Below are positions 4,504 to 39,438 of a stretch of DNA of 64,000 nucleotides, piece by piece. This stretch comes from Gammaproteobacteria bacterium (GTDB taxonomy: Bacteria; Pseudomonadota; Gammaproteobacteria; Eutrophobiales; Eutrophobiaceae). Position 1 is the stretch's first letter; each line of letters opens with the position of its first letter. The stretch covers positions 1,728,001-1,792,000 of the forward strand of contig CBDCTH010000012.1 of NCBI GenBank assembly GCA_965222155.1, in the 5' to 3' direction. A program made the position numbers and the translations under genes. The notes below the pieces were generated by a model. It saw only the letters and a program-made list of their open reading frames with translations. It had not been told where the DNA came from and ran no database searches.

Positions 4504-4512
4504 AACCTTCTC

Positions 4513-5175: not shown

Positions 5176-5415
5176 TGTGATACCCTCAGACATACCAAAT
5201 AAATTCTGGCAAATTAAAATCGACTGGTCAAGCAATTAATCAACACAACCGCATACTCTCAAATTCTGCTGCACATGCCGGTTGGCAACCTGGACTGTTC
5301 CTGGCTGGCATCGTCTTATTGAAGCAATAATGAGGCCAGGAGGATACTGAAACATCAGGCGTTTTTACACGGCCTGATGCGTAAGTATGACAGTATGGAC
5401 GTAGGTCCTCCGTCT

Positions 5416-6289: not shown

Positions 6290-6307
6290 GGTTCTTGACA
6301 GGTACAG

Positions 6308-7201: not shown

Positions 7202-8201
7202 TAGCGGCCTTGCTCTCGGCGACCAGGCACAGGATTTCAAACAGCATCTGTTTGCCGACCTGCGGTGTATTGGTCGTAGTATCGTACTGGGGGGCGACCT
7301 CAACCAGGTCGCCACCCACGAATTTCAGTCCTCGCAATCCCCTGAGAAGCTGGATTGCCTCAGCGGTAGTTATGCCGCCGATCTCCGGTGTGCCGGTGCC
7401 GGGGGCATAGACCGGATCCAGGCCGTCCACGTCGAAACTGATATAAGCAGGCCCGTCTCCCAACACTTCGCGGGTTTTCTCGATGACTGCCTCAACCCCC
7501 ATTGCATGAAAATCCTGGATGGGTATCACCGTCATGCCTGAATCATAGGAAAATTCCCAGAACACCTCGGCTGCGCCCCTGATACCGACCTGCACGCAAC
7601 GGTCCGGATCCAGTACCCCGTCCAGGACGGCGTGGCGGAACGGGCCGCCGTGATGGAATTTGTGGTCCTCCAGCGCTCCCATGGTATCGCAATGGGCGTC
7701 TATATGGATCATGCCCAACGGTTCGTCCCGGCCCACCGCCTTCATGATCGGATACGTCACGGAATGATCGCCCCCTGCCGATACCGGGATCACTCCTGCA
7801 TCCACGACCTTGTGGTAATACTGCTCTATGGTCCGTATGCCCTCATCCAGGCTGAAACCGTGCAAGGGCACGTCACCGATATCCGCGATGGTGCAGAGAT
7901 CAAAGGGGTTGACCCTGGTCTGATGGTTAAAAGGCCCTACCGCCATGGATATGTTTCTTATGGAACGCGGTCCGAAACGCGCCCCGGTCCGGTGCACCAC
8001 GCCGGCGTCGAAGGGTACGCCGATCAACGCAATATCCAGCCCTTCCGGCGTCTCTTTATAGGGAGCGTCACACAAGGTGGCGATACCGGTCAACATATCC
8101 GTAGCGCCGAGCATGGCCTTTGCATGGTCCGGGTCGTCTACCTGATGATAAGGCTGGTCCCGGTACTTGTTGCGCAGCACTGCAAGTTTTTGTTGATCCA
8201 T
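7191..8201 (-). CDS. Agmatinase/ureohydrolase family protein
   Basis: GARFGP, GGDHS, DAHCD, SFDVDGLDP...APGTGTPE, VEVAP metal-binding motifs. Confidence 0.9.
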   Translation of the reverse strand: MDQQKLAVLRNKYRDQPYHQVDDPDHAKAMLGATDMLTGIATLCDAPYKETPEGLDIALIGVPFDAGVVHRTGARFGPRSIRNISMAVGPFNHQTRVNPFDLCTIADIGDVPLHGFSLDEGIRTIEQYYHKVVDAGVIPVSAGGDHSVTYPIMKAVGRDEPLGMIHIDAHCDTMGALEDHKFHHGGPFRHAVLDGVLDPDRCVQVGIRGAAEVFWEFSYDSGMTVIPIQDFHAMGVEAVIEKTREVLGDGPAYISFDVDGLDPVYAPGTGTPEIGGITTAEAIQLLRGLRGLKFVGGDLVEVAPQYDTTTNTPQVGKQMLFEILCLVAESKAANGR

Positions 8202-8277
8202 ATCGCTCTCCTGGAAGTGTGTTAAGGAAACCCTTACTTAATCTGAGGTTCCTGTAAACCCAGTTACCCTGCTGTAA

Positions 8278-9414
8278 TCAGTGTTTCACGGTCCTGCTGC
8301 GGTTTACCCGGGCAAAAATAATAACCGCCAACACCGCCGCCGGCCACTGTATCCACGCGATTGCTTCATAACCCGTCTCCTCTATGAGAAACGCGCCGAA
8401 AACAGGACCAAGCGCGGTACTGAGAACAAATACGCCACCGGCGATGGCTGCCCAGCGGCCTTTAGCGTCGACGCCGGCTGCCAGGGTCAACATCAGCGGT
8501 ATCATTATAATGAACAACACTGCCTCAAAAAAGGCGACTATTCCCAGCATGATAACAGAGTCGGTCCAGACAGCCAGGGTAACCGACACTGCATGCAATA
8601 CCGTGGTTGCGCATAGTCCCGCCACCAGACCGAACCTGCCGGCTACCGGCGCGGCAAGCAGTCCGCCGATAATGCCGGCAATCTGAACCGCGGCAACGAT
8701 GCGGCCGGTTTCAGACGGATCGGCGCCGATCTGTACAGCCAGACGTTCCAGAAAAGCGTAATACGCCATCATGCTGATACCGATGACCATGATGCCGGCC
8801 ATAAGGATAGAACCGGCGCGGATACTGTCCACAGGTAGCGAGAGCGCGGCTGACGCACTGCCACGCTCCGGCAAGAACCAGACTAAAGGCAGGAACATCA
8901 GCAGCGTTACTGCCAGGTATCCATACAAGATATCATACGTAACCAGGTCGTTGCTCTCGGTAATCACGATGGCCATGATGGAGGTGAAAATGTAGGCTGC
9001 AGCCCAGGCCAGACCGTACAACAGGTCCGGAGCACGCGCCTGCGCAATCGCGGCATTGACCGTCGCCATCAGGCAACCGCAGCCCGCCCCTGCCAATATC
9101 CGCCATGGATACAGTTCATTGAGGTTAGCGGCCGTTGCTGCGCCTGCATGTCCCGCCAACAGCAGGATACCTCCTGCAAGTGCCAGGAGACGATACGGTA
9201 TCCTGACGCTGACGGGCGCCACCAGGATGCTGGTGATACCCATGACCAGCAGTTCGACTGTTATCAGGGCGCCTGCTTCAACTTCACCGATATTCAGTCC
9301 GATAATCAGACCGCCGACAGCCAGTGGAGACAGAATGACCGACGCGATCGCCAATACCTGGGCAGCGCAAGTACCGATAATGTGTCGAACGGGGTCGCGG
9401 GTTTGATCAGCCAA
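8278..9414 (-). CDS. MFS transporter
   Basis: About 12 hydrophobic helices in 378 aa; within the DUF1989-ureohydrolase operon. Confidence 0.75.
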   Translation of the reverse strand: MADQTRDPVRHIIGTCAAQVLAIASVILSPLAVGGLIIGLNIGEVEAGALITVELLVMGITSILVAPVSVRIPYRLLALAGGILLLAGHAGAATAANLNELYPWRILAGAGCGCLMATVNAAIAQARAPDLLYGLAWAAAYIFTSIMAIVITESNDLVTYDILYGYLAVTLLMFLPLVWFLPERGSASAALSLPVDSIRAGSILMAGIMVIGISMMAYYAFLERLAVQIGADPSETGRIVAAVQIAGIIGGLLAAPVAGRFGLVAGLCATTVLHAVSVTLAVWTDSVIMLGIVAFFEAVLFIIMIPLMLTLAAGVDAKGRWAAIAGGVFVLSTALGPVFGAFLIEETGYEAIAWIQWPAAVLAVIIFARVNRSRTVKH

Positions 9415-10018
9415 TTTGAATACGGAGCGGGGTGGATTTGCCGCCTATGGGATCGATTCCCTCAATCGTTAGATCCGCTGAACACGCGGTTACCGCGATA
9501 ATAACGTCCATTTCAGCCCTGAACTCAACATAGTCACCTGCCTTACTGAGTGTTTGCCCAACTGCGAAATCGCCATTGGGCTTCGGCGCCGTATTCTGAA
9601 ACAGGTTAAAGGGGTCCGGTGGCGGTTCCATGCTGATGTCCAGTTCCTTAATGGCCCAGTAAAAATTATCCCTGCAGTTGGGATGTGATGCATTCGCTCC
9701 AAGGTCTACATAGAAACCCGGATCACAGGGAGCGAAAGCCATGTCGTGGCGACCCGGAGACGTATCATCCAGAAAGGTCAGCATGGGCCGGCGGCGATTA
9801 CTGTACAGGAAGTCGCCTGGTTTGGGCACCAACCTGAAGATGACCTGGCGCGTCAACGCCGGGCTGAAGTATTCGTGCGGGCTGTCATTGGATAGAATGA
9901 ACATATCGGCAATCTGGCAACCTTCCACATCGATTACCCGGAAAATACCACCCCGTTCAAGACGGAGGGCGCGGCCCTCGTAACCTGGTATTTCAATGCC
10001 GTTATCTGCCATGGTCAT
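9407..10018 (-). CDS. DUF1989 (urea carboxylase-associated) family protein
   Basis: VIDVEGCQIAD, LYSNRRRPML, HDMAFAPC, HPNCRDN, PFNLFQN, SKAGDYVEFRAEMD..TACS. Confidence 0.85.
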   Translation of the reverse strand: MTMADNGIEIPGYEGRALRLERGGIFRVIDVEGCQIADMFILSNDSPHEYFSPALTRQVIFRLVPKPGDFLYSNRRRPMLTFLDDTSPGRHDMAFAPCDPGFYVDLGANASHPNCRDNFYWAIKELDISMEPPPDPFNLFQNTAPKPNGDFAVGQTLSKAGDYVEFRAEMDVIIAVTACSADLTIEGIDPIGGKSTPLRIQIG

Positions 10019-10115
10019 ACTCTCATTCTAACTGATTGAATAATAAGAACTTATAAATAGGGGTGTTAAACTTGTGTTATAACTGTTTGCGTGACCTGCA
10101 GTTCTTTCACTGTTC

Positions 10116-10544
10116 CTATGCTGTACGGCTGATTATTTTAACCAGCGAACGGACAATTGTTTTGGAGACCTTTGAGAAGAGTTTAGGGGGCAAAACACCA
10201 TAACTGTATTTCTTCTTACCTGATTTGGTTATTGGCCTGATATCCGGGCCGGGCCAGGTAAACCGATTCACTTCATTGCAGATAATCCATGAACGGTCGC
10301 TGTCCAGGCCCAGGTATTCTTTTACTTTGCGCGGGATTTCCACCACCATATCAGGATTCTCCTGTTCTCTGTGTGTAATCGGCACAACTGTGACTACAAG
10401 ATGGTTTCCCTTTATTTTCCTGGATAAAACAACTGCACACGGCCTGTCTTTTACACCTTCGTCCCGCCCTGTCAGGTAATCTTTACGCCAGAGATATGAG
10501 TAGCTGATAACAAAACCCGGAAACGGCTCTGGAATCTGTGTCAT
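10116..10544 (-). CDS. PemK/MazF-like toxin
   Basis: YSYLW...EGVKDRPCAVV...VVPITH...LGLD...SWI...EVNRFTWPGPD; directly downstream of a Phd antitoxin. Confidence 0.75.
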   Translation of the reverse strand: MTQIPEPFPGFVISYSYLWRKDYLTGRDEGVKDRPCAVVLSRKIKGNHLVVTVVPITHREQENPDMVVEIPRKVKEYLGLDSDRSWIICNEVNRFTWPGPDIRPITKSGKKKYSYGVLPPKLFSKVSKTIVRSLVKIISRTA

Positions 10545-10559
10545 CTGGCGTTTTTCTTA

Positions 10560-10820
10560 TTATTCCTTGTTGAGCAATTCATTCAGGTAGGCGTATTCTT
10601 CAGGTACATTTGCCGAGGCGATGTCACGAATGTCTTCTTCGCTTAATTCCTCGACTCCCATTACCTGTCTGTCACGGCGTTTAAGGCGTCGGTACTCTTC
10701 AGTCGATAGCAAGATATATTTTTCCCGGCCATTTCGGGTAATAGACACGGGTTCTTTTAAAACCAATTCTTGAATATCACCAATATGACGCTGTAGTTCA
10801 GTAATTGTGACACTTGCCAT
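10560..10820 (-). CDS. Phd/YefM family antitoxin
   Basis: EPVSITRNGREKYILLSTEEYRRL signature. Confidence 0.85.
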   Translation of the reverse strand: MASVTITELQRHIGDIQELVLKEPVSITRNGREKYILLSTEEYRRLKRRDRQVMGVEELSEEDIRDIASANVPEEYAYLNELLNKE

Positions 10821-10838
10821 GAGCGTATCCCGTAGACT

Positions 10839-10869
10839 ATATATTCTACATATAATATGTAGAATATAT
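10839..10869. promoter_or_regulatory. Perfect palindrome, probable TA autoregulatory operator
   Basis: ATATATTCTACATAT-A-ATATGTAGAATATAT (15-bp arms), 18 bp upstream of the antitoxin start. Confidence 0.65.
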
Positions 10870-10879
10870 CAAAATATCA

Positions 10880-10909
10880 ACACACTATATTGACACACAC
10901 TATATTGAC
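10880..10909. repeat. Tandem 15-bp duplication
   Basis: ACACACTATATTGAC occurs twice head-to-tail in the divergent TA/res intergenic region. Confidence 0.8.
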
Positions 10910-11007
10910 CTCGAGTTAGCGGAAACGCCTGTTGAATTCATCTTCATTTTGTATAACAACTTCAATTAAGCTAATGTAATACCTTCCGTTTCAAGGTATG
11001 CGCGGCA

Positions 11008-14000
11008 ATGGCAGAATCATTTTACGAAAGACCTATCCTGAATTCGCCCTACGAGGAACCCGGGCTGCATCATCGTTTGGATGATGCCGGTCAACCCGTG
11101 GATGGTCCGCCCGAAACCGGCCGCAGACGCTCAGAACTGATCAGTCCTGTTCCCAAACCAAGGCTACGCCGCCAGGCGGGCACCCTGGAACAGGTTACTT
11201 TGACACTCTCATCGGGGGACGGCATTTCATCCTCTGAACAGGAATATGATCCGTTTCCAATCATCAATGATATTCGTTCCCACGTCGCTGACTGGCGTAA
11301 GCTTCCAAGCCGCAATGATTGGGGAGTGACTCCGGCTACTGCACGTTTGTTGCACCACTGGCGGCATCATCATTTCCAGGGTATACGGCCTTTTTTCTGC
11401 CAGATAGAGGCCGTGGAAACCATTATCTGGTTGACGGAAGTCGAACACCGGCAAAAGAAGCACAAGCACATCTGGAAGCATATTCAAAACGCCAACGAGC
11501 AGGCCAACCCGGAACTGTTGCGGCTGGCCTTGAAGATGGCGACAGGCGCCGGCAAAACAACGGTCATGGCCATGCTGATTGCCTGGCAGACTGTCAACGC
11601 AGTCCGCACACCAGGCAGCAAACTCTTCACTCGTGGTTTCCTGGTCGTGACGCCGGGCATCACCATTCGCGACCGCCTGCGAGTCTTGCAGCCAAACGAT
11701 CCTGACAGTTACTACAAGACTCGGGAACTGGTCCCTGTGGATATGCTGGAAGAGATCAACAAGGCCCGGATTGTCATTACCAATTTCCATGCATTCCAGC
11801 TTCGCGAAGTCATGGATACCGGCAAAGTCGGCAAGGCCCTGCTGCAGGGGCGCGATCAAGCACTGCATACGTCTGAGACCGAGGGTCAGATGATCAAGCG
11901 GGTTGCCGAAGAATTGATGGGATTTAAAAACATCGTCGTGATCAATGATGAAGCGCACCACTGTTACCGGGAGAAACCCGATAATGAAGATATCGCGGGT
12001 CTCACGGCTGACGAGAAAAAGGAGGCAACTGAAGAGAATAAGGCTGCTCGTATCTGGATCAACGGCATCGAGACCTTCAAGCGTAAACTCGGTGTGCGCG
12101 CCGTTTACGACTTATCCGCAACGCCTTTTTTCCTGCGCGGTTCCGGTTGGGCAGAGGGAACCCTGTTCCCCTGGACAGTCAGTGATTTTTCCCTCATGGA
12201 CGCCATCGAAAGCGGTATCGTCAAGCTTCCCCGAGTGCCTGTCTCCGACAATATCCCAAATGAAGAAATGCCGATCTTCCGGGACCTGTGGAAACACATC
12301 AGCAAAAACATGCCCAAAAAAGGCAGACAGACGGGCGGCGACCCCTTGGCGCTCCCGGAAAAACTCCAGACCGCGTTGCACGCACTCTATAGCCATTATG
12401 AGCAAACCCATCAACGCTGGGAACAGGACGGCATTGAAGCTCCACCCGTGTTCATCGTCGTCTGTAACAACACGTCAACATCCAAGCTGGTCTATGAATG
12501 GATTTCCGGCTGGCAACGTCCTGACGAAGACGGTGAAGAGGTATTCATGCACTCCGGTCATTTGGCATTATTTCGGAATTTCGATGAACATGGCAACCGC
12601 CTGCCCCGACCCAATACCTTGCTGATTGACAGCCGCCAACTCGAATCGGGTGAGGCGCTGGATAAGAATTTCCGCAAGGCGGCAGCGCTCGAAATCGAAC
12701 AATTCAAACGCGAAATAATCCAGCGTTCCGGTGCCGGTAACGGGGGCGATATCTCCGATGCCGAACTGCTGCGCGAGGTCATGAACACGATCGGCAAGAA
12801 AGACCGCCTGGGTGAACAGGTGCGTTGCGTAGTCTCAGTCGCCATGTTGACGGAAGGTTGGGATGCAAACACGGTCACCCATATCCTGGGCATCCGGGCT
12901 TTCGGCACCCAGTTACTTTGCGAACAGGTCGTTGGGCGCAGTTTGCGCCGTTACTCTTACGACCTGGATGATGGTTTATTCACTGTGGAATACTCCGACA
13001 TCATGGGTATTCCCTTTAACTTCACGGCCAAACCGCAGGTGGCGCCGGTCAAACCACCTCGAAAGACAACCAGAGTCCATGCTGTCCGTGAACGAGCGAC
13101 GCTGGAGATCGTCTTCCCGCGCGTCACCGGCTACCGGGTTGAACTACCCGAAGACAACCTGACTGCCAGGTTCACCGACGATTCAAAACTGGTACTGACC
13201 CCGGAGATGGTCGGCCCCGGCCAGACACTGATGGCAGGTATTGTCGGCGAGAACGTTATGATCTCAGCAGCTGAGGCACGGGCAACACGGCCCAGCACGA
13301 TTACATACGACTTATCCAAACACTTGCTTTACAAGTTCTTCAGGGATAAAGACCAACAACCCAAGCTGTACCTCTTCGGACAGATAAGACGCATTGCACG
13401 CCAATGGATCGACGGCGGTTACCTCGAGTGCCGGGGCAACACCGGTAAGTGGATGCTGGAATACCGAAATATCGCAGACCAAGCCGGAGAGCGTATCTAC
13501 AATGCCATCGTGAACGCCATATTGGACAAGCGTCGAATTCGGGCGGTGCTAGACCCTTACAACCCGAAATCCTCCACCTCCTATGTGAGTTTCTCCACAA
13601 GCAAGGATTTATATACTGCGGCGCCGGATAAGTGTCATGTGAACTACGTCGCCCTCGACAGCGCCTGGGAAGCCGAGTTCGCCCGGGTTGTGGAACAGCA
13701 TCCCAGGGTAAGCTCTTATGTCAAAAACCAGGGGCTGGGCCTTGAGGTTCCATACAAGGATGGATCGTCGGCACGGGTTTATGTTCCCGACTTTATCGTC
13801 CTGATTGATGACGGCAACGGCCCTGATGATCCACTACACATGGTAGTCGAGATCAAAGGCCGTCGTTACGAGAACGTCAAGCTGAAGTCAGAAACCATGC
13901 GTACCCAGTGGCTGGTCGGCGTAAACAATCTTGGCAACTTCGGTCGCTGGGAGTTCGCAGAGCTTTCCGATGTGTATGCGATGGGAAGTGACCTTACGGA

Positions 14001-28884: not shown

Positions 28885-29157
28885 GGTCGTTACACACTGC
28901 CCCATCAAAGTTTTTCATACCGTAATTCAGGTTCAGCAGCCAAATACGACTATGCGGAATCAAGCGTAAAATTTACGGTATTTTCATTTATAATGTTGAA
29001 TTCCCTAAAACTGAATTGTTTATTTCCGATAGCAACAAGCGACCTGGTGAGAAATCCGGGCTAGTTCAATGCACATAAAAAATGATACAAAATCGCTTGA
29101 TTCTGGATTATATTGTATAGAATTCTCGTCCTGGTGTAACCGCGTGTAGAAGGAAAC

Positions 29158-29622
29158 ATGATTAAACTCAATGTAAATGACAAACATTATGAACTGGACG
29201 TCGAAGCGGACACGCCTCTTTTGTGGGCGCTCCGGGATGAGATTGGATTAACCGGCACCAAGTTCGGTTGTGGAATAGCCCAGTGCGGCGCCTGCACCGT
29301 TCACGTTGATGGAAAACCCATGCGTTCCTGTGTTCTCCCTGCGGGCAATGTCGGCAATAAAAAAATTACCACCATCGAACACCTGGCCAAAGACGGCTAT
29401 CACCCGGTGCAACAGGCCTGGCTGGAATTGCAGGTACCACAGTGCGGTTATTGTCAATCGGGACAACTGATGTCCGCCGCCGCCTTGCTGGCAGATAATC
29501 CTTTACCTTCCGATGCAGATATCGATAAGGCCATGTCAGGCAACATTTGCCGTTGCGGTACATATCAGCGCATCCGCGCAGCCATTCACCGCGCCGCCGA
29601 ATTACAACGGGAGACCTATTGA
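29158..29622 (+). CDS. IorA/CoxS-like (2Fe-2S)-binding subunit
   Basis: [45 protein letters not shown]. Confidence 0.92.
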
Positions 29623-29623
29623 G

Positions 29624-30661
29624 TTGGAGTTATCCGGCCGGGTGGTTACCGGGACAGGCCGGGCTGCGGGTTTTACCGAACTCGGATATGCAAAGAAGCA
29701 ATTTCTCGACAAACTGGGTATCGATACCTGGCCCGGCACACTTAATGTAAAACTGGACGACACAGAGTCACTTGCCGACTGGCAATCACTCAGGGATGGA
29801 GACGGCATCGGTATCAGCGACCCTGACGGTAACAGCTGTCATGCCCGCAGTTACCCGGTACAAATCAACAACCAGGTAACCGGGGCCATAATCTTTCCCG
29901 AGATCAGTGGTTACCCGGCTGACCAGGTAGAGATTATCGCCCCGGTTTCACTGCGCCAACACCTCTCATTGAACGACGGCGACCTTCTCAGACTAAACAT
30001 TATCAGACCTGTCAGAGCCAGCGCTGTCCTGTTTGACCTGGACGGCACGCTGGTCGATACCGTGGGCGCATTTTACCTGCTCGCCAAACTGACCGGAGCC
30101 GAGTTCGGCCTGGAAATATCCAAAGATCGCATGTATGAGACCTTGAATCACGGCATTTCCTATTGGGAGCATGTCGTGCCGAACTCAGTGGAAGATCGCC
30201 CGGCCATGATTGATAAGCTGAACAACAGGGCCATGCAACTCTGGCCCGATATTATCAAAGACAAAGCCGGGGTTTTCTCTGGTGTGTACGAAACCCTGTC
30301 AGCCCTCAAAACAGCGGGTTATACGTTGGGTATAGTCACGGGATCAGGGGAGCGATCCCTGGGATTATTGTATGAACTGGGCGTGGCTGGACTTTTCGAC
30401 GCGGTCATTACCGGCCCCGACGTCAAAAAACGAAAACCGGATCCGGAAGGCCTGTATAAATGCCTGAAACGCATGGACGTTACCCCGGGCGATGCGGTTT
30501 ACGTAGGAGACAGCGTGATCGACATGCAGGCAAGCCGTGCCGCGGGAGTCCTGCCCATAGGGGTACTCACCGGCGCCGGCACGTCTCCCACCTTATGCAA
30601 GGCCGGGGCCTACAGGATCGTCAGCAGCCATGAGCAGGTGATGGATTTACTGGCGACCTGA
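29624..30661 (+). CDS. CTP-dependent riboflavin kinase (DUF120)-HAD phosphatase fusion
   Basis: GRVVTGTGRA, WPGTLNV, EIIAPVSLR..L.LNDGD; then FDLDGTLVD, VTG, KPDPE, GDSVID; probable TTG start at 29624. Confidence 0.8.
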   Translation: MELSGRVVTGTGRAAGFTELGYAKKQFLDKLGIDTWPGTLNVKLDDTESLADWQSLRDGDGIGISDPDGNSCHARSYPVQINNQVTGAIIFPEISGYPADQVEIIAPVSLRQHLSLNDGDLLRLNIIRPVRASAVLFDLDGTLVDTVGAFYLLAKLTGAEFGLEISKDRMYETLNHGISYWEHVVPNSVEDRPAMIDKLNNRAMQLWPDIIKDKAGVFSGVYETLSALKTAGYTLGIVTGSGERSLGLLYELGVAGLFDAVITGPDVKKRKPDPEGLYKCLKRMDVTPGDAVYVGDSVIDMQASRAAGVLPIGVLTGAGTSPTLCKAGAYRIVSSHEQVMDLLAT

Positions 30662-31123
30662 GCGACCTCTGGGAGAATCCAGCTCGTAGCCACGCTGTTC
30701 ATAATCGAATCCACCCAGTTCGAGACGTTTCAGATCCGTTGCCTGCGGCGACGCATAATAGGCCCGGATTTCCTGCATCAAACCCGTACCCGTATCGAAC
30801 ACGACCCACTCGGCGCCACGCAGGACCGTACCCTGGCTGGTCTTGAAATGGGTCCATTCAATCACCGCTTCTCCCTTTTGCGCGTCGATTAGCAAAGCAT
30901 CAATGGTCCAGTACGAACCGCCCTTCCGCACCGCGGCGCACCAGCGTTCGGCGATCTTCGCCGCACCCCGGAATGGCCCTTCATACATACCCGGCGGAAA
31001 ATAATGGATGGCATCGGGCGTGAAGCAACGTATTATTTTCTCCCGGTCAGCCTCATTACAACCGTCGTAGTATTCACGCATCAGGGCTTCCATTTTTGCA
31101 GTGCTCAAATGTTCTATTGCCAT
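30647..31123 (-). CDS. SnoaL/NTF2-like protein
   Basis: YYDGCN..D...CFTPDAIHYFP...AVIEWT...EIRAYY. Confidence 0.75.
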   Translation of the reverse strand: MAIEHLSTAKMEALMREYYDGCNEADREKIIRCFTPDAIHYFPPGMYEGPFRGAAKIAERWCAAVRKGGSYWTIDALLIDAQKGEAVIEWTHFKTSQGTVLRGAEWVVFDTGTGLMQEIRAYYASPQATDLKRLELGGFDYEQRGYELDSPRGRSGRQ

Positions 31124-31137
31124 GATTATTACCTTAT

Positions 31138-31200
31138 TCTGTAAAATTCGTATTAATGACCTGTTTTTTTCGTATTAACAGTCTGTAAAATTCGTATTAA
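31138..31200. repeat. Three direct repeats with 22-bp period
   Basis: TCTGTAAAATTCGTATTAA (31138), CCTGTTTTTTTCGTATTAA (31160), TCTGTAAAATTCGTATTAA (31182). Confidence 0.8.
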
Positions 31201-31273
31201 CCTGTGGAAAAGTTCAAGTTGATAGTATATATTCTGCGACATCAAGCAAAATCAAATCCACGCAATACGACCC

Positions 31274-31528
31274 ATGTACCCTAGAAGCATACAACCTTTC
31301 CTTGAGGAATTACTCACGGAATTCCGTGTGCTTTACCTGACGGGACCTCGGCAGGCGGGCAAAACCACACTGGCGCGTGCCGTTGCTGTAAAACTGGGTA
31401 TGGACTACATCACCCTGGATGATCAAGCAATTTTGGCATCCGCTAAATCGGACCCACACGGGTTTATACGTTCCTTGGGCGCCAGGAAAGTAGTATTGGA
31501 TGAGTTTCAATTAGCGCCAGGTAGTTGA
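31274..31528 (+). pseudogene. Truncated AAA+ ATPase (AAA_14/DUF4143 type)
   Basis: MYPR...LTGPRQAGKTTL...YITLDD...VVLDEFQ, then stop; the family is normally about 400 aa. Confidence 0.8.
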
Positions 31529-31712
31529 AGACCGTCGCGAATACTACTAGCTGTATGTGGTAACCAATTGCGCTACCGAACCCAATCTTCAGGAACCTGT
31601 TCATGACCCGGCACGGCTACGGTGGCACGAAGTTACCAAGGTCGCCCACTATTATTTTGGCGTGGATGCCCTGAAGCAGCCCCTATAGGTGAGGGGCATA
31701 TACAACAACATC

Positions 31713-32849
31713 ATGAACCGCGTTGAACGCTATGAAAGCTTGATCAAGGCGCCTTCCCCGGCCCCGTCGCACTGGGCTGCTTCCTGTACACACCAGGAAT
31801 GCTCACTGCATCAGTTGTCGCCGTATATCGGCAAGTTAAAAAGTATTATTGCCCATGACCTCATTTTGCAATACAGCAAACCCGGTGATCTGGTAGCAGA
31901 CATGTTCTGTGGCAGCGGGACTGTACCCCTGGAGGCAGCCCGCCTTGGGCGACGCGTATTTGCTTCCGACACAAACATATATGCTGTCACGCTGACCAGA
32001 GGCAAACTTGAAGCGCCCGCTGATACCGAAACTGCGATTAAAGTTCTTAACCGCCTTCTGGAACATGCAAAAACACTACCTGTGCCGGACCTCAGGTCTG
32101 TCCCGAAATGGGTTCGTGCTTTCTTTCACCCTCAGACACTCAAAGAGGTATTCCGTCTCAGTGAATTTCTCAGCAACGAACGGCATCATTTCCTGCTGGC
32201 GTCCCTGCTTGGTATTCTGCACCATCAAAGACCTGGATTTCTGTCGTTTCCCAGCAGTCACCTCGTTCCATATCTTCGGTCAAAAAAATACCCCAGGGAT
32301 AGCTATCCTGAACTTTATCAATACCGCTCCGTTGCCGAGCGCCTGCAAGCTAAGGTAAAGCGCGCACTGAAACGCCCACCAACACGGTCATTAAATAAAT
32401 TTGTCGATGACATCAGCAGGTCCTCTGTGGAATCCGTTAACCTCCCTGACGATATCGATTGTGTTATCACAAGCCCCCCTTATATGAACGCGCTGGATTA
32501 CAGCCGTGATAATCGTTTGCGTCTCTGGTTTCTCGGTGAAACCCACCTGGAAGCACCAGATCGCGCGTTAGCGAGTCTTCATGCTTTCAGGAAATTAATC
32601 AGTTCACTGTTGAAACAATTGCAACAAAAGATGCGCTTGGGCGGTCATTGCGTCTTTGTCATAGGCGAACAGACCTTTCGGGGTGGAGGACGATTTCCAT
32701 CCGAAGAGTTAACAAGGATTTTTTTATCACCCCCTTCAACATTTCAGCTATGCGATGTTGTCAGCGACATCATCCCTGACGTTCGCCGTTCGCGGAAATA
32801 TTTTGTCGGGGTAAAACGGGAGAATATTCTTGTATTCAGGAAGTTTTGA
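31713..32849 (+). CDS. DNA amino-methyltransferase (SPPY, probable N4-cytosine)
   Basis: HQLSPYIGK, DMFCGSGT (motif I) preceding ITSPPY (motif IV). Confidence 0.85.
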   Translation: MNRVERYESLIKAPSPAPSHWAASCTHQECSLHQLSPYIGKLKSIIAHDLILQYSKPGDLVADMFCGSGTVPLEAARLGRRVFASDTNIYAVTLTRGKLEAPADTETAIKVLNRLLEHAKTLPVPDLRSVPKWVRAFFHPQTLKEVFRLSEFLSNERHHFLLASLLGILHHQRPGFLSFPSSHLVPYLRSKKYPRDSYPELYQYRSVAERLQAKVKRALKRPPTRSLNKFVDDISRSSVESVNLPDDIDCVITSPPYMNALDYSRDNRLRLWFLGETHLEAPDRALASLHAFRKLISSLLKQLQQKMRLGGHCVFVIGEQTFRGGGRFPSEELTRIFLSPPSTFQLCDVVSDIIPDVRRSRKYFVGVKRENILVFRKF

Positions 32850-32851
32850 AT

Positions 32852-35342
32852 ATGCGTAGAAATCTTCCTCCAAAAGAATTATTTCTTGGAAAAACGATTG
32901 GAAGATTTCCAAACCATGTAATTCAAGAGCATGTCAATTCAGGCAATAATGGTCATTTGTTTCTGGCCTTCGATCAATCAACAGAAAGCAAACTCGCGTT
33001 TAAAGTTGTTCCATCTGACAATCTGCCGGATGATGAAGATGAACAACAAATCTATTTAATTGAGGCAAAAAAGGCCAATATTTTACAGCACCCCTCCGTT
33101 GTCCAATACATTGATGTTTTTCCATATCATGTTCCCGATACACTGGTGAAGTGTGTGATTTTTGTATGTAATTTCGTGGATGGCATAAACCTTAGAGACT
33201 ATATAAAGAAAAACCGCTCGGAGATTACAATTGTATTTCTTGCGAACAATGTTTGAGCTATTGTATGAGCTTAAACAACGCAAAATGACCCATGGTGACC
33301 TGCATGCAGGTAACGTTCTTATCTCGAAATCTGAATATGACATCTACGATAGAATTACCTTCCGTGTAACAGACTTTGGTGTAGGTGAATTAACAGGGCT
33401 TTTAGCTCACACAAATGATTATTTATATACTTCTGATACGCTCAGGCAACTGCTGGAATGTATAGAATATCAAAATTGTGAAAGTCGGGATCGATATGCC
33501 TACGAAATTCTTCGTCATGATTTTTTGGAACGGCATCTGACTGAGACAGATCCTCTGGCTGACACATTAGCAATGCAGCCGCAGAAAATGCTGGAAAAAC
33601 TGGACTCTATAGATGGAAAGTATCTGGAGAAGACAACAGGTGAAATCGTTACAACACTAGTCACACCCTTCGACTACCCTAACTGCGAGCAAATAGGAAA
33701 TTCCCATCTTTTACTCAAGAACCTCTATTCCGACCGTTTACTTGGATTATTGGAAATTAGGGCGCGATCAAATTTAATGTTAACCGGACCTCGAGGATGT
33801 GGAAAAACTACTGTTTTCCGTGCACTGAGCCTCGAATATTTGATCTCGACTGAAGATGATCAGCCAAACCGTATCAACTATATCGGCATCTATTATAGAT
33901 GCGACGATCTCTATTTCTCTTTTCCAAGATATAAGACTCCTGGACGATTTGAAGCACTGGACGTCCCCATGCATTTCTTGATCGTGACGTTGCTGGCAAC
34001 TGTACTGGAACAGATTGGCACCTGGGCAAAAAAGCATTTTCCGGATGAATTCAAAAAGAAAGAAGAAGCACTTGTTCTGGAACTTTGGAATTTATTTGAA
34101 TGGCCGTCTCTGAATAATCCAAATGCCAGGCAACTGGCTACGCTAATAAATAAATTAAAAACCAAGGAAAGAAAACGCGCTGCAAAAAAGCAAAATTTTG
34201 TTCATGTACAGACTGAACCTGTCAAAGGCTATTTTGGCCCTGGGGTTATGTTTGATGCTTGTCGTCTTATACGCGACAAGTTTTCTTTCCTTAACGACCG
34301 TCCTTTCTATTTCTTTATTGATGATTATTCTCACCCGAAAATTACTAAGGAGTTACAAGCAAACCTGAACCGATTGCTCATGCACCGCAGCTCGGATGTT
34401 TTTTTCAAACTCTCAACAGAGAGCCCTGTCTCTTTTGTACGCGAGGATGTGGACGGTAAACAGTTTGTAGAATCTCGTGAGCTTGATTTAGTAAATCTCG
34501 GACTGAGATACATCAAAGATGACAAAAATCAAGCGATTGAATTTCTTGATGACCTATTCAGCCGTCGCTTCCAAAGGGTTGATGGATATCCTGTACAAAC
34601 TCTTGAACAACTACTGGGATCAATACCACGCAATGAAAACGCCACGGCCCGTGCTTTTCGAGAGAAACAAGGGCGTCAAAACTATGCTGGCAGAGAAACT
34701 ATAGCCGCAATGTGCAGCGGCGATATTCACTATATTATTCGTCTTGTCGCGAGGATGGTGGATGATTATGGGGGGCCAGACGCTCTGGCAAACTCCCAAA
34801 CACCTTGCATACCTCCTCAACAACAACATGATTCTATCCGCGCTGCTGCAGGTTCGTTTATGGAGTCTGTACGCACTTTACCTCGTTGGGGGAAACAACT
34901 TGCAGAGGCAACGGCAACATTCGGTAGTGTTGCGCATTCTTATCTCATGTACGAAACATCAACCAACGAAGCTAATGAGCCTCCTCACCAAGCTTCCCGG
35001 ATTGAACCATACGAGACATTAAATTTATCCGAGGAAGCACAAGAAATACTTGATGAACTATTACGCTACTCAATTCTCATTGAAGATCCCCGGGGGAAAA
35101 GTCGGAGAGGAAAGGTTGTGCCAAGATTTTTTCTCAGGCGTTATTTAATCCCCCACTTCCACCTGACATTCAGCCGTAGAGACTCCCTCGAATTGGAAAA
35201 TGACCAGATCGAAACCTTATTGTGTAAGCCGCAGACATTCGAGGAACAGATGAGATTAAAATCTTTAGAAGATGCAGCGCGCCGGCGCCGAAGAGATCCA
35301 GATCAACTGCAACTCCTCGAAGAGGAGGGTCCGCGTGTTTGA
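32852..35342 (+). pseudogene. Ser/Thr protein kinase-P-loop ATPase fusion, split by a frameshift near 33235
   Basis: ORF1: SGNNG Gly loop, AFKVV, EAKK, HPSVV. ORF2: HGDLHAGNV, TDFG, then GPRGCGKTT and FFIDD. Confidence 0.8.
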
Positions 35343-36429
35343 TAAAAATATCCTAAGGACAGATGAACGATTAAGCAAGGTAGCCTGGCCTGCTTTGCAA
35401 ACAATCGATGTTCCCATAGTAGGATCTGGTGACTGTTTGTTGATATGTGCGGGATTTGAAGATCGATCTATCGAAACACTACGCCGAATACTGGATGCTA
35501 GAAAATCCGGCTTCGTTCTTGGATTAGTAAGTTATTTACCCAAGCAACCCGAGAATAGGCAAGAAGAATTACACACAATCATCCAGAATGCTGATCTTCA
35601 AGTAAGAAGATTTGTTTATGACCGTGAAAATCCAGCAGGTATAGGGAAGGAGCTAAAAAGCTTTACAGAGGGATTCGACCGCGTTTTTATTGATATTTCC
35701 GGCATGTCACGCCTGCTTATCGTTCAGTTACTGGTTGCCCTGTTGACTCGTGACAATGATTCAGTAACGCTAATCTATGGCGAGGCCGATGTATATCCAC
35801 CATCTGAAGATAAATTCGAACAAGATTACAGAGAGAATAATTCCAATCCGATCCCAGGTTACCTGTCGTCTGGAATTTTTGAAATAGCAACAACTCCTGA
35901 ATTGAGTTCTGTATCTATGTTAGGTGAAGCCCTCAGGCTGATAGCATTTCCGTCCTTTGATCCTGCACAGCTCACGAATTTGCTCCATGAATTACAACCT
36001 GCTTACACAGAATTTATTCATGGCGCACCACCAGCCCGAAAGAACAAGTGGAGAACGGAGGCAATCCGCAAACTTAACCGATCTACACTGGATGAACTTC
36101 GGGGGAAAAGGGACCATGAGACCTCCACGCTTGACTATAGGGAGACACTACATAAGTTGCTTAAGATATATGCAGAACGCAGTATGTTTGATCGCCTTGT
36201 AGTTGCTCCGACCGGTAGTAAGATGCAAGCAGTAGCTGTGGGTTTATTCCGCGCGGCGTTGTATGACGTTCAAATCGTTTATCCAACTCCACAGGTTTTT
36301 ACGACACCGAAAGAACATACTTTAGGGCTGCGTCAACTGTATCAACTAGATATACCTGCCGAAGCTTTTATTAATGTCATCGGGAACTCCAGGGACGATT
36401 TCAGCGATACGCTCGAAACACATCCATGA
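35335..36429 (+). CDS. Uncharacterised protein with two CARF-like Rossmann repeats
   Basis: GTG start after GAGGAGG, overlapping the upstream stop; CAGFEDRS...IDISGMSR...LIY and FPSFDP...APTGSK...IVYP. Confidence 0.6.
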   Translation: MFDKNILRTDERLSKVAWPALQTIDVPIVGSGDCLLICAGFEDRSIETLRRILDARKSGFVLGLVSYLPKQPENRQEELHTIIQNADLQVRRFVYDRENPAGIGKELKSFTEGFDRVFIDISGMSRLLIVQLLVALLTRDNDSVTLIYGEADVYPPSEDKFEQDYRENNSNPIPGYLSSGIFEIATTPELSSVSMLGEALRLIAFPSFDPAQLTNLLHELQPAYTEFIHGAPPARKNKWRTEAIRKLNRSTLDELRGKRDHETSTLDYRETLHKLLKIYAERSMFDRLVVAPTGSKMQAVAVGLFRAALYDVQIVYPTPQVFTTPKEHTLGLRQLYQLDIPAEAFINVIGNSRDDFSDTLETHP

Positions 36430-36580
36430 TTCCAAAGGAGTGTAAACGTCTGGCGGAGGTGGATTTTCCAATCATTTTGGTATCCAGATACACAGGCCAT
36501 TAGAAATCTATCCGGCATGGGCATCCTTCTACGCTTTAACACCCTTCAAAAACTCGTATGAACCTATGAAAAAATTGAAG

Positions 36581-37871
36581 GGAACCTCTAATAATTGACG
36601 ATTTCCGTTACTATCGCTATCTATGCGGGCAAGCCGGGTTCTTTTACATATAAATGTATTCGGCCAGTGGCGAAATGACCCCGTGCTCGCCTTCATCGAC
36701 CCCTTAATCGGGCCGTTTTATTGCCTTCGGGTGTCGGTTTGACACCAGCCGGGCGTTGTCTCCGTCAAGCAGGCGCGCTGACCCCTTCCAGGTAACACAG
36801 TCGTCGCATGTTATACCCCAGGTTCAGCATCCCTATGGCCAACTCACTGCGCGCCAGCCCGATACAGCGTATCAGCTTGGCCCGGGTCGCACACTGCGCC
36901 CCGAACACGTGCTCCACCCGCACCCGCACCTTGGCCCGCGTGCGGTTGCCCTGCTGCGCCCACGCCGTCAACGGCTTGTTGCGGCGCCCCTTGCGCTGAA
37001 TGTGGCTGCGGTAGCGCTGGGCCTGCAAGCGTTCCTCCTGCTCCCTGGAACGGTAGGCGCGGTCCGCCCATATCGCCTTGCTGCTGTTGTGCTCATCCAA
37101 CAACTCATCGAACAACTGCGAGTCATGCACGTTGGCCGGCGTCACCGCATACTTGCGTACCAGCTTGTGTTTGTTATCGACATTCACGTGGTTCTTGTAC
37201 CCGTAATGACTCCTGCCCCGCTGCTTCGTCCAACGAGCCTCCACGTCCTTCTGCCGCCGCTTGGATTTGGCTGCCTCATCGTCCCAGCCCGCAGGCGCCT
37301 CCCCCGCCTTAAGCGCCGCATTCTCCTCGCGCGTGTTGCGCTGCACCGGCACCAAGGAAGCATCCACCCACTGCCCCGTGCGCGCCCGATACCCCAAGTC
37401 TGCTAACTGCTCGGCAAACCGTGCAAACAGTTCCTCCGTCAATTTCAGCTCCACCAACTTCTCACGAAACGCCCAAAAGGTCTTCGCAGCCGGTGCCCGA
37501 CGCACATTATCCAACCCCATAAACCGCTGAAAACTGCGCCGGTACTCAAGCTGATATTCCAACTGCTCATCACTCAACCCGTACAAATGCTGTAACACCA
37601 ACCCCTTGAACAGCAGCACCTCATCCCGACGCGGGGCGCCCGCATTGCGCTTGCGGGTCGTGGGTCGAATACGCACCAATAGCGGACGAAACGCCTCCCA
37701 GTCCACTACCTCACCCAACCGCACCAGGGGATCCTTCAGTTTATTCAAGCGGGTGTCTTGCAAGTCAAACAACGAACCGAATATGTCTTGTGTCTTCATG
37801 AAACCACCTTGAGGAAAAAGTTGAAATAAGTCACCGCTATTATATCATTCGATTGAATAAATAGAGGTTCC
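36581..37871 (-). mobile_element. Complete IS5-family insertion sequence (1291 bp)
   Basis: GGAACCTCTA terminal inverted repeats; TTGAAG direct repeat at 36575-36580 and 37872-37877. Confidence 0.9.
36765..37799 (-). CDS. IS5 family DDE transposase
   Basis: VDWEAFRP, YGLSDEQLE, VDAS, HYGYKNH, NVHDS, ADRAY, RVRVEHVF. Confidence 0.93.
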   Translation of the reverse strand: MKTQDIFGSLFDLQDTRLNKLKDPLVRLGEVVDWEAFRPLLVRIRPTTRKRNAGAPRRDEVLLFKGLVLQHLYGLSDEQLEYQLEYRRSFQRFMGLDNVRRAPAAKTFWAFREKLVELKLTEELFARFAEQLADLGYRARTGQWVDASLVPVQRNTREENAALKAGEAPAGWDDEAAKSKRRQKDVEARWTKQRGRSHYGYKNHVNVDNKHKLVRKYAVTPANVHDSQLFDELLDEHNSSKAIWADRAYRSREQEERLQAQRYRSHIQRKGRRNKPLTAWAQQGNRTRAKVRVRVEHVFGAQCATRAKLIRCIGLARSELAIGMLNLGYNMRRLCYLEGVSAPA

Positions 37872-37914
37872 TTGAAGTTGGTAACATACATTCTGTAGTT
37901 ACTATGATAACGCT

Positions 37915-39438
37915 ATGAAAAGACGGGAATTCATAATCGGGACAACCCTGGGCCTGGCATCAGCCCAGGTTCCTTCGCCACTAGTTGCAGGGGTCAAGTT
38001 CTCCAGGAATCCGTTTACGCTGGGTGTTGCCTCCGGTGACGTCACAGAAGACTCGGTGGTGCTGTGGACACGGCTTGCGCCGGAACCGCTGGCGGTGGAC
38101 AGCGGGATAAAAGATGTCGCCATACCTGTGCATTGGGAATTATTTCAGGATGAAGCCATGCAAACGCCCATCAGGCAAGGTGAGGAATTAGCCATTCCGC
38201 AGCTTGCCCATTCTGTACATGTTGATGTACAAAACCTTGAACCCGGACAAGAGTACTGGTACCGGTTTTCAGTGGGCAAACACACCACGGAACCGGGACG
38301 TACAAAGACCCTGCCTGCTGCCGGCAGTCAACCCGCTTCCGTTCGTTTCGTCACTGTATCCTGCCAGAACTACACACACGGTTATTTCGTGGCATACGAC
38401 CATATCATTGCAGACAACCCGGACTTCGTAATTCACCTGGGTGACTATATCTATGAAACATCCTATGGCGAGACCTTCAGAAGGCACGAAACTGAAGACA
38501 TGCCGTTTACACTTGACGGTTACCGGCGACGGCATGCGTTGTATAAAACCGATGAATCCCTTAAATGGGCTCACGCCAGGCTACCTTTTTTTGCCACGCT
38601 GGATAACCACGATGCCGTGATTGATATTGATCCTGCCGGACTGGCGCGCAGAGCCGCCGCGTACCAGGCCTGGTATGAACACATGCCGACCCGCGGCTAC
38701 GGCAAGCCCGGCGACAACCGGTTTCAACTCAGCAGGACTATCCGCGCTGGGAGACTGGCACAAATCAACCTGCTGGATACCCGCCAATTCCGCGCCGAAC
38801 AGTCCCTCTGCGCTGGCGGCGATCCCGCTTATGGCTTCGGCAACTACCGGCCGCGCTGTCCTGAAATGTTCGCTGAGCAGCGCAGCATGCTGGGACAGGA
38901 GCAGGAACACCGGTTGGTGCAAAGTATACTGAACAGCACTGCGGCCTGGAACGTGTTAGCCTCATCAAGTGTCTTTTCGCCCTTTCGCCTGGAGATCGGT
39001 AAACAGATATTCCGCTATGTAGGTTCCTGGGACGCTTACCCTGCCAACAGGGACAGGGTCGTCAACGCAATCAACCGGAGCAAGACCGGCCAGGCCGTTA
39101 TCTTGAGCGGCGACATGCACTCCTTCTGGGCCATTGACGGCGCGCAGTCCATGGAAGCTGCCGAACGAATTCCGGTTGTAGAGTTTGTTACTTCTTCCAT
39201 CACGGCCAACTGGCCCGAAACAATGGCAAAACCCATTACCGATAACCTGGCTCAAAACCCCCAGATAAAACTCTACGAACCGGATAAACGCGGGTACCTG
39301 TTACATGAGATTACCGCGACGGAGTGGCAAACTACGGCCCGCGCTGTGCATAACCCCAGGGATGCACAGTCAAATGCTTTCGACCTGGCACGTTTTGTTG
39401 TCGAGAACGGTAAACCCGGTTTCAGGCAGATACTTTGA
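37915..39438 (+). CDS. phoD: PhoD-family alkaline phosphatase (Tat)
   Basis: KRREF; FTLGVASGD, VLWTRL, HLGDYIYE, DNHD, LDTRQFR, WDAY, SGDMH. Confidence 0.88.
   Translation: MKRREFIIGTTLGLASAQVPSPLVAGVKFSRNPFTLGVASGDVTEDSVVLWTRLAPEPLAVDSGIKDVAIPVHWELFQDEAMQTPIRQGEELAIPQLAHSVHVDVQNLEPGQEYWYRFSVGKHTTEPGRTKTLPAAGSQPASVRFVTVSCQNYTHGYFVAYDHIIADNPDFVIHLGDYIYETSYGETFRRHETEDMPFTLDGYRRRHALYKTDESLKWAHARLPFFATLDNHDAVIDIDPAGLARRAAAYQAWYEHMPTRGYGKPGDNRFQLSRTIRAGRLAQINLLDTRQFRAEQSLCAGGDPAYGFGNYRPRCPEMFAEQRSMLGQEQEHRLVQSILNSTAAWNVLASSSVFSPFRLEIGKQIFRYVGSWDAYPANRDRVVNAINRSKTGQAVILSGDMHSFWAIDGAQSMEAAERIPVVEFVTSSITANWPETMAKPITDNLAQNPQIKLYEPDKRGYLLHEITATEWQTTARAVHNPRDAQSNAFDLARFVVENGKPGFRQIL

Follow-up and report, generated by a model that had tools for sequence, protein, structure and literature searches.

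Three coupled genes in an AT-rich stretch

We analysed a 64,000-nucleotide stretch of a Gammaproteobacteria genome (contig CBDCTH010000012.1, positions 1,728,001 to 1,792,000; hereafter the window), in which a cassette of three genes lies head to tail on the + strand at about 31.7-36.4 kb. The genes encode an amino-methyltransferase (gene 1), a protein-kinase-like domain joined to an ATPase (gene 2) and a predicted CARF-fold protein (gene 3; Table 1). The ATG of gene 2 at 32852 follows the stop codon of gene 1 after a gap of 2 bases; the start of gene 3, judged from its homologs, is the GTG at 35335 and not the ATG at 35272, 8 bases before the stop codon of gene 2. GC content is 0.40-0.46 over 32001-36000, compared with 0.51-0.57 in the DNA on both sides. 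Searches with Pfam, PADLOC and NCBIfam matched no nuclease family to any of the three proteins, and no cognate restriction endonuclease of the kind that marks type II restriction-modification (RM) was found; no NCBIfam model exceeded its cut-off. The initial annotation of this DNA had described three tightly coupled, AT-rich genes with no restriction nuclease, set between a truncated ATPase gene and an IS5-family insertion sequence (IS). That description is confirmed: the fragment upstream is of the AAA_14 type and the IS downstream carries a transposase matching NF033581. Scans of 31000-37000 for promoters and terminators did not rise above shuffled sequence (promoter-like sites: 7, with 9.5 expected; terminator-like sites: 7, with 6.0 expected).

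In the window, gene 2 is split over two reading frames, 32846-33256 with the kinase N-lobe and 33231-35342 (gene 2b) with the HGD, DFG, Walker A and Walker B motifs. The ATPase is ORC-CDC6-like: gene 2b matches PF24389 at 1.3e-51 (176.5 bits; cut-off 27) over window positions 33753-34622 and 34653-35195, and the intact homolog from the nearest related locus, L001, scores 179.1 bits. The Walker A/B ATPase proposed for this gene is confirmed. Across 41 full-length homologs of gene 2, no variation is seen in K53, E67, HGDxHxxN, DF, Walker A GPRGCGKT or Walker B DDY. The kinase had been credited with a complete Hanks motif set. Its Lys, Glu, HxD..N and DF(G) are indeed present, but the catalytic loop reads HGDLHxGN where the Hanks motif is HRDLKxxN, and no APE motif was seen. 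Pfam Pkinase gives 48.2 bits for the intact L001 protein against a cut-off of 31.7; the N-terminal piece in the window, taken alone, gives 29.3 and falls below it.

The frame break comes from 11 bases that are absent from the window at about 33236 when it is compared with L001 (82% DNA identity); with them go the FIE-x residues present in every homolog. We aligned contigs of 4 public runs from 4 studies over 31000-38000 and found 11 extra letters behind 33236 in 4/4 runs, at full contig depth. With these letters, gene 2 reads ...SEITIV-FIES-FLRTMF... in one frame, like its homologs. The contig from one run, X1 (3515 bases over 33104-36607), has 0 other differing letters and 11 gap positions relative to the window; X1 may be the window's own sample and so is not independent, and the three other runs differ from the window at many positions. 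Since the contigs of all four runs carry the letters that restore a single frame, the cassette is probably intact. Gene 2 most likely encodes an unbroken protein of about 833 amino acids (aa), with an assembly gap or a rare allele as the probable cause of the break. The view of gene 2 as a decayed pseudogene with an 11-base deletion was overturned by these contigs, and the 'repaired operon' once envisaged for cloning is probably not needed.

The open reading frame (ORF) of gene 1 spans 31689-32849; it opens at GTG 31689 and has an ATG at 31713. Its product matches Pfam N6_N4_Mtase at 3e-12 (47.4 bits; cut-off 26.7), over 46 residues only, as well as UPF0020 (32.6 bits; cut-off 22.3) and the type II methylase models of PADLOC (MTase_II, best 5.7e-22). 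The earlier identification of an amino-methyltransferase with the motifs DMFCGSGT and SPPY holds. We collected 44 homologs of gene 1 beside the cassette. In 39 rows there is no or almost no variation in SPPY, the glycines of FxGxG and a HHQRPGFLSxPSSHLVPYLR block, and the most conserved block, with a mean column identity of 0.93 among 42 homologs, lies between motifs I and IV. The alignment itself (A3) holds 38 of these 42, four with open or over-long N-terminal ORFs having been left out (L021, L041, L042 and L044). SPPY is a pointer to DNA N4-cytosine methylation, and together with the sequence models it makes N4-cytosine in DNA our best guess for the substrate. The predicted structure of the protein is good (predicted local distance difference test, pLDDT, 82.6); a Foldseek search of the PDB with it was uninformative, returning NNMT/PNMT at a template-modelling (TM) score of about 0.34 with a root-mean-square deviation (rmsd) of 13-16.

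Gene 3 has no Pfam or NCBIfam match, and its profile found 0 matches at E<=1 among PDB sequences. In PADLOC, 10 of its 11 matches are to CARF6 models, the best at 3.2e-15. Structural comparison of the gene 3 model with VIA-align, for which the stated background of a best match is Z 7-8, gave Card1 at Z 13.4 (rmsd 2.9, 128 residues aligned), Can2 at 12.9, Csa3 at 12.1 and Can1 at 11.2 with 229 residues aligned; CARF proteins fill ranks 1-20. SAVED domains reach Z 8-9.5 over about 190 residues. Foldseek against the PDB returned generic Rossmann-fold matches only (best E 2e-4, TM 0.2-0.35). The motifs DISGMSR and PTGSKM sit where, as we assume, CARF signature motifs do. By this comparison gene 3 has a CARF fold, in keeping with the earlier reading of it, from the letters, as a tandem CARF-like protein with two Rossmann-like repeats.

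Relatives of gene 3 are numerous: at E<=1e-3 we found 1190 among 7083 candidates, all called 'hypothetical protein' where the source names them, and its profile covers 806 clusters at 50% identity. Some are fused to a HisKA+HATPase_c histidine kinase (P0254) or to a calcineurin-like phosphoesterase (P0202); these fusions show the gene 3 domain in use as an input module. No longer fused relatives of 638-2000 aa turned up among 8000 candidates, which is weak evidence.

We also predicted the complex of gene 2b residues 140-703 with gene 3, alongside 3 controls. The median score of 0.60 (best control 0.00) lends weak support to a contact: the mark for this score is passed by 116/157 solved complexes and 2/215 mismatched pairs, and scores <=0.60 came from only 18/157 solved complexes and from both of the passing mismatches. 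At least 66% of contacts are shared between runs, and the partner pLDDT is at least 78. Because the two genes are strictly adjacent and PADLOC holds a model in which they are fused (below), we consider it likely that the two proteins bind each other.

A catalogued class of ATPase-CARF6 loci

A single PADLOC model, PDLC01925 'CARF6--CARF_STK_AAA' (1187 positions), is matched by gene 2b at positions 331-816 and by gene 3 at 859-1175; a fused kinase-ATPase-CARF form has therefore already been modelled. We then looked at the company that the ATPase keeps elsewhere. A search of 401 genomes of the window's phylum with PF24389 gave matches over the cut-off in 13, from which we took 8 full-length loci besides the window's own: one each in G266, G068, G066, G361, G389, G136 and G281, and a second locus of the window's genome. 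G184, whose match has the same coordinates as that in G389, and four partial matches were left out. A gene matching CARF6 models, at E 1e-220 to 2e-11, lies directly behind the ATPase gene in 8/8 of these loci. What precedes the ATPase or is fused to it varies; by the annotation of 29 ORFs adjoining the ATPase genes, it is PRTase-CE (PF24390) in three loci, a calcineurin-like protein in three, HD-CE (PF24391) in one and a ParA fusion in one. A DNA methylase is adjacent in 5/8, drawn from four Pfam families (N6_N4, N6_Mtase twice, C5 and D12). The initial annotation had suggested a survey for swapped N-terminal effectors near homologs of gene 3; among these 8 loci the effector does vary.

The window locus has the features of these loci: a PF24389 ATPase, a CARF6 gene directly downstream and a kinase effector fused to the N-terminus of the ATPase. 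It differs from its siblings in the effector, which in them is nucleotide-degrading and here is a protein-kinase-like domain, and in the methylase, which in the window-type triad is obligatory and comes first. One preprint (bioRxiv 10.64898/2026.01.15.699771) expands 'CE' as 'conflict effector' and names Nicastro et al. 2023 as the source of Calcineurin-CE.

A split form of the cassette lies on a Bradyrhizobium quebecense plasmid, with a methylase of 392 aa, a kinase of 246 aa as a separate gene, an ORC-CDC6-like protein of 652 aa and a CARF6-like protein of 366 aa; RefSeq names all but the methylase 'hypothetical protein', and a recombinase lies beside them. The PF24389-24391 models and the CARF6 names of PADLOC presumably go back to Nicastro et al. 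2023 and Makarova et al. 2020.

The second system in the window's genome lies about 270 kb away, at G000:C12:2033204-2037922 (L063; in a wider excerpt, L093 5995-12680). Two unannotated ORFs (244 and 334 aa) are followed by a ParA-ORC-CDC6-like fusion of 935 aa (PF24389, 7.6e-85), a CARF6 gene of 314 aa (PDLC01920, 3.9e-18) and an N6_Mtase methylase of 395 aa. The system resembles the 'HINPO' systems of a recent preprint (bioRxiv 10.64898/2026.10.19.760177), whose accessible text mentions no CARF6 or methylase partner.

In the literature searched, the available portions of papers on 'ORC-CDC6-like' proteins (in BREX and ParA systems) do not describe the triad, papers on CoCoNuT, embedded defence and CRISPR classification hold nothing on it, and a search for 'CARF6' returned nothing relevant. 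The cassette had been proposed as novel and beyond a match to any named system, with the caveat that related ORC/CDC6-like operons might be catalogued. It is the caveat that stands: PF24389, the CARF6 and CARF_STK_AAA models and the pairing of ATPase and CARF6 in 8/8 loci indicate that the locus is not a new kind but a genuine and probably functional kinase-effector member of a catalogued, experimentally uncharacterised class. That it belongs to this ORC-CDC6-like + CARF6 class and serves defence or conflict is, in our judgement, very probable.

The triad as a mobile unit within a decayed island

To see how the three genes travel, we searched one-genome-per-species contigs with a gene 3 profile, A1, built from 24 of 120 listed matches plus the window. 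This gave 57 loci with about 14 phylum-level labels, many of them in sponge-associated metagenome-assembled genomes (MAGs). A locus counted as informative if at least 3.7 kb lay upstream of gene 3, which was so in 47. In 41/47, methylase, kinase-ATPase and CARF6 genes are complete and in the same order, with gene 2 in two pieces in one (L003); the methylase is the first gene in 41/41 complete copies. The other 6/47 (L009, L010, L052, L055, L056 and L057) are truncated or frameshifted copies. A contig end cuts the remaining 10 loci, whose visible part agrees with the triad order. When all 790 ORFs of at least 90 aa were clustered, no further family was shared by more than 9 of the 57 loci, and no small ORF adjoining the triad is common to the loci beyond the context genes. 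Such recurrence is far beyond chance, and the conserved three-gene unit expected from the window is there, the exceptions being visibly degraded. In a quick tree of gene 2 (41 full-length homologs and the window) the phyla are mixed, and there are two main clades, one of 16 rows mostly from sponge-associated MAGs. The triad is a self-contained unit that moves between phyla by horizontal transfer.

Decay is frequent. The copies in L003, L009, L010, L030, L052, L055, L056 and L057 carry frameshifts or 5' truncations, or have lost gene 2 while retaining gene 1, which suggests frequent loss or a cost of carriage. As a separate observation, a gene for ThyX (FAD-dependent thymidylate synthase, PF02511) directly adjoins the triad in four loci belonging to different branches, among them the Bradyrhizobium plasmid form, and is on the strand of the triad in each (Table 1).

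Where neighbours of the triad recur, they are restriction-type systems. In 6 loci (L002-L005, L014 and L015) it stands between the type III genes mod (N6_N4_Mtase, 8e-42) and res (ResIII), and in 4 (L001, L012, L013 and L016) it has an SNF2/NOV_C helicase on one side and a DUF1156 methylase on the other; in L019, L031 and L055 its neighbours include HsdR-type genes. The copies embedded in mod/res come from sponge-associated MAGs of at least 3 phyla, with the cassette at about 6300-11100 in most. PrrC inside a type I locus is a parallel to a triad within a type III operon. Both embeddings occur only in the 16-row clade and in none of the 26 rows of the other; since each label needs two changes on the quick tree, neither goes back to one event. 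We read the embedding as the clustering of defence islands and not as a requirement.

The window itself has lost such neighbours. By blastn, 31513-36532 corresponds to L001 6186-11198 at 82%, and the flanks 29077-31137 and 37886-38998 match L001 at 79%. In L001 the order is SNF2/NOV_C helicase (ORF 2939-6352, with Helicase_C, SNF2-rel_dom and NOV_C), triad, DUF1156 methylase (993 aa and whole; PF06634 at 7.1e-22), one ORF and a DUF499 ATPase. The window keeps only the last ~170 bases of the helicase gene and a DUF1156 stub whose start codon overlaps the stop codon of gene 3 (ATGA); in tblastn the stub is 62-75% identical to the beginning of the ORF that follows gene 3 in L001, L013 and L016. 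The flanking helicase/DUF1156 system was deleted and an IS5 inserted, with the triad kept while its neighbours decayed. The 84-aa ATPase fragment upstream matches PADLOC PDC-S01 at 5.2e-27 over profile positions 11-91 of 422, and in L011, L027 and L031 the cassette has full-length relatives of it (403-413 aa) close by.

The IS5 transposase matches NF033581 with 269 bits (cut-off 140), and the inverted repeats of the element are at 36581-36596 and 37856-37871. Contigs of X6 and X8, from two other samples, lack it: 36574 is joined to 37872, skipping 1297 bases, so the IS5 arrived after the DUF1156 and DUF499 genes were lost. Its depth in X1 is 6-12 times that of the flanking DNA, from which we take it to be multi-copy and recently active. 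One X6 contig, at a depth of 42 compared with 10.5 for the island-bearing contig, passes directly from 31511 to 37899 and leaves out 6387 bases. This joint may, weakly, represent an empty site or a co-occurring strain that lacks the cassette; it is seen in one contig, the shorter arm of which has 45 letters. A perfect 19-base direct repeat, TCTGTAAAATTCGTATTAA, with copies at 31138-31156 and 31182-31200, marks the left edge of the island, and 38 bases at 31187-31224 match L001 17866-17903, the right edge of the L001 island. The repeat region may be an attachment or recombination site.

This mobility bears on whether the cassette serves immunity at all. It could instead be a selfish addiction or maintenance module, made of a methylase and a restrained toxic kinase-ATPase, or provide an ORC/Cdc6-like replication or partition function for an integrated element. 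The horizontal spread on the quick tree would suit such a module, as would the variable island, with its joint of 31511 to 37899 in one X6 contig and its IS present or absent between samples, the plasmid form beside a recombinase, a class member among conjugation genes (L096) and the high share of degraded copies (6/47 loci); Pgl, too, is called toxin/antitoxin-like in the title of Hoskisson et al. 2015. However, nothing conserved alongside the triad is an integrase, replication or partition gene, the recurring neighbours are restriction-type systems, and the sibling systems carry nucleotide-degrading 'conflict effectors'. Selfish and defence roles are, moreover, compatible with each other. 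We regard a purely selfish or replicative function as quite improbable.

Table 1. Features of the cassette, its surroundings in the window, and matches elsewhere. Coordinates are positions in the window unless prefixed: G000:C12 refers to the window's genome, L numbers to related loci.
Feature	Position	Strand	Basis
Gene 1, amino-methyltransferase, motif I before motif IV	31713..32849	+	DMFCGSGT ... SPPY
Gene 2, protein-kinase-like domain, ORC-CDC6-like AAA+ ATPase and C-terminal region	32852..35342	+	Pfam, motifs, homologs
Gene 3, tandem CARF-fold protein (predicted) of the 'CARF6' group, no effector domain	35335..36429	+	PADLOC, VIA-align
AAA_14/DUF4143-type ATPase gene fragment, 84 aa, outside the cassette	31274..31528	+	Pfam AAA_14 4e-10
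SNF2/NOV_C helicase gene, remnant of 3' end	31513..31688	+	blastn against L001
DUF1156 methylase gene stub, 25 codons, remnant of neighbouring system	36426..36503	+	tblastn
IS5-family insertion sequence (transposase 36765-37799)	36575..37871	-	NF033581 3.8e-80, inverted repeats
ThyX neighbour gene	L023 5206-6189	same as triad	PF02511
ThyX neighbour gene	L053 1353-2279	same as triad	PF02511
ThyX neighbour gene	L010 10804-11172	same as triad	PF02511
ThyX neighbour gene	L097 8109-9032	same as triad	PF02511
Cas10-palm match, ORF of 1023 aa	G000:C12:561539-562156		PF22335, 60 bits
Cas10-palm match, ORF of 900 aa	G000:C12:570557-570973		PF22335, 100 bits

What the cassette may do

Within the defence reading, we propose a working model in which the CARF6 protein would be a ligand-binding sensor that sits on the ATPase. 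The AAA+ ATPase would act as an ATP-driven switch, perhaps reading DNA through its ORC/Cdc6-type C-terminal region, and the N-terminal kinase would be the output, phosphorylating targets of the host or the invader and so leading to a stop in growth or abortive infection. The methylase would mark the cell's own DNA such that the system does not fire on self; this self-marking role we hold only tentatively, with more doubt than belief. As a whole, class membership together with this working model is the best explanation of the locus we have, with a probability of about 0.55.

By analogy, the model is close to the idea put forward in the initial annotation, where the ATPase would sense unmodified DNA or methylase inhibition and trigger the kinase, and to the logic of two known systems, bacteriophage exclusion (BREX) type 2/Pgl and the methylation-associated defence system (MADS). 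BREX type 2/Pgl consists of the PglX methylase, the PglW kinase, the ORC/Cdc6-type ATPase PglY/BrxC, and PglZ; in the accessible text of PMC12839542, it likewise combines a methylase, a Ser/Thr-type kinase and an ATPase of the ORC/Cdc6 clade with no classic restriction nuclease in its core, and ATPases of this type are said there to work with methylases in BREX and DUF499 systems. In contrast to BREX type 2/Pgl, the cassette has no PglZ, BrxA or BrxB; its methylase is a small SPPY enzyme and not PglX (the PglX model covers 46 residues only, at 3.5e-07); its kinase and ATPase are one protein; and it includes a CARF6 protein, of which BREX has none. MADS (mad1-8) also combines methylase, kinase and ATPase, and weak PADLOC matches link gene 1 to mad2 (3.9e-07), the kinase N-lobe to mad6 (9.7e-12) and the P-loop to mad8 (2.7e-05). 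However, NCBIfam MAD6 scores 24.9 bits where its cut-off is 460, NCBIfam lists no further MADS model for genes 1-3 and none falls on gene 3, and MADS has eight genes where the cassette has three.

Several results weigh against the working model. Self-marking, as we propose it, gives CARF6 no necessary role and fits poorly with an invariant methylase: unlike in the methylases of RM and BREX, no variable target-recognition stretch appears among 42 homologs across phyla, a point that also counts against an arms race of the classic RM type. The solved folds closest to the gene 1 model are RNA guanine-N2 methylases (Trm11 at Z 18.7, TrmN 18.5, Trm14 17.9 and RlmKL 16.3), ahead of generic class I methylases at Z 14-16, and no DNA methylase is found among the 50 structural-match rows. 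Because its nearest solved folds act on RNA guanine, the identity of gene 1 as a 'DNA methylase' is not settled. In 2/8 class loci there is no methylase nearby, even with 36 further ORFs annotated, and one more locus ends at a contig edge. The HGDLHxGN loop and the missing APE motif of the kinase leave open that its substrate might be something other than a protein. The predicted structure of gene 3 is of moderate quality (pLDDT 69.7; predicted TM score, pTM, 0.74), good at residues 10-160 and poor at 175-264. On viral contigs, 31 pattern matches include no relative, and phage records hold no match to the cassette, so that these searches give it no direct link to phages. Lastly, the literature searched, whose scope likely leaves out the defining papers, reports no experiment on any member of the class.

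The fact that the cassette pairs a CARF-fold sensor with no cyclase or other signal synthase raises another role for gene 1, which is the only enzyme at hand able to write a ligand. The methylase could mark the host chromosome, and methylated nucleotides or oligonucleotides freed when a phage breaks down that DNA could bind CARF6 and turn on the ATPase and kinase. CARF6 relatives are fused directly to output domains, as small-molecule sensors are, and the lack of a variable specificity region in the methylase suits a function that depends on the base and not on the site. There is also a precedent, described in the accessible part of bioRxiv 10.64898/2026.01.15.699771: PUA-Cal-HAD is activated by m6-dAMP derived from Dam-methylated DNA. 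This PUA-Calcineurin-CE-HAD system resembles the cassette in combining a nucleotide-sensing input with a conflict effector and in having DNA methylation as the source of its trigger, but its sensor is PUA and not CARF, it has no ATPase and no methylase of its own, and its effector degrades deoxynucleoside triphosphates, so that the likeness, as far as that text goes, is one of logic only.

The same precedent cuts the other way in that its mark comes from housekeeping Dam, which makes a dedicated methylase unneeded. Further, the methylase families of the class differ in kind (N6_N4-type, N6_Mtase, C5 and D12), which would require the sensor pocket to vary accordingly, and the ORC/Cdc6-type DNA-binding part would be left with no role. 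Known ligands of CARF and SAVED domains are cyclic or 3'-5' oligonucleotides. On balance, we think an alarm derived from the methylome unlikely, and a shade less likely still the stronger form of the idea, that the cassette is a self-contained immune circuit that writes the mark and then senses its release. If this were true, CARF6 would be the first CARF-type receptor for a ligand derived from damage rather than synthesised by an enzyme, and the circuit would explain why a methylase travels with a nuclease-free system.

A more conventional ligand could arrive in trans. In this scenario CARF6 would sense cyclic oligoadenylate (cOA), or cyclic di- or trinucleotides, made by a Cas10 or by a cyclase of a cyclic-oligonucleotide-based antiphage signalling system (CBASS) elsewhere in the genome, and the cassette would serve as an additional effector arm. 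Among solved structures, the closest folds are those of CARF proteins that bind cOA, with SAVED domains at the Z scores given above; in fold, gene 3 is like the CARF and SAVED sensors of type III CRISPR and CBASS (Card1, Can1/Can2, Csa3, Cap4/Cap5), with Z 13.4-11.2 for the CARF proteins. The window's genome has two Cas10-palm matches about 1.2 Mb away from the cassette (Table 1), and so probably contains type III CRISPR-like loci; because these matches are present, an input of this sort is possible there. But gene 3, unlike these sensors, has no fused effector domain and no linked cas10, cyclase or cas gene, none being found among the conserved neighbours in 57 loci. Cas10 palm2 was found in 2/5 host genomes searched, far from the cassette; 3 of the 5 have no Cas10 palm2, 3 have no SMODS, and one (G403) has neither, in a sample that is small and set against a Cas10 search that was positive in 6/14 control genomes. 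The triad also travels alone between phyla on the quick tree, and its obligatory methylase would go unexplained. We give this accessory role only a slim chance.

We return to the working model of a sensor, switch and kinase guarded by methylation as our preferred reading. The class to which it applies is large, with its 806 gene 3 clusters, and the kinase form alone carries about 14 phylum-level labels. The cassette unites three subjects that tend to be studied separately: epigenetic marking, a CARF-type sensor that has no synthase, and a kinase output on an ORC/Cdc6-like switch. The trigger of the class would tell whether CARF sensors read ligands that no dedicated enzyme makes. For the window, these results point to a cassette of a catalogued type, probably intact despite the break in its frame, which lies within the wreck of a larger defence island.

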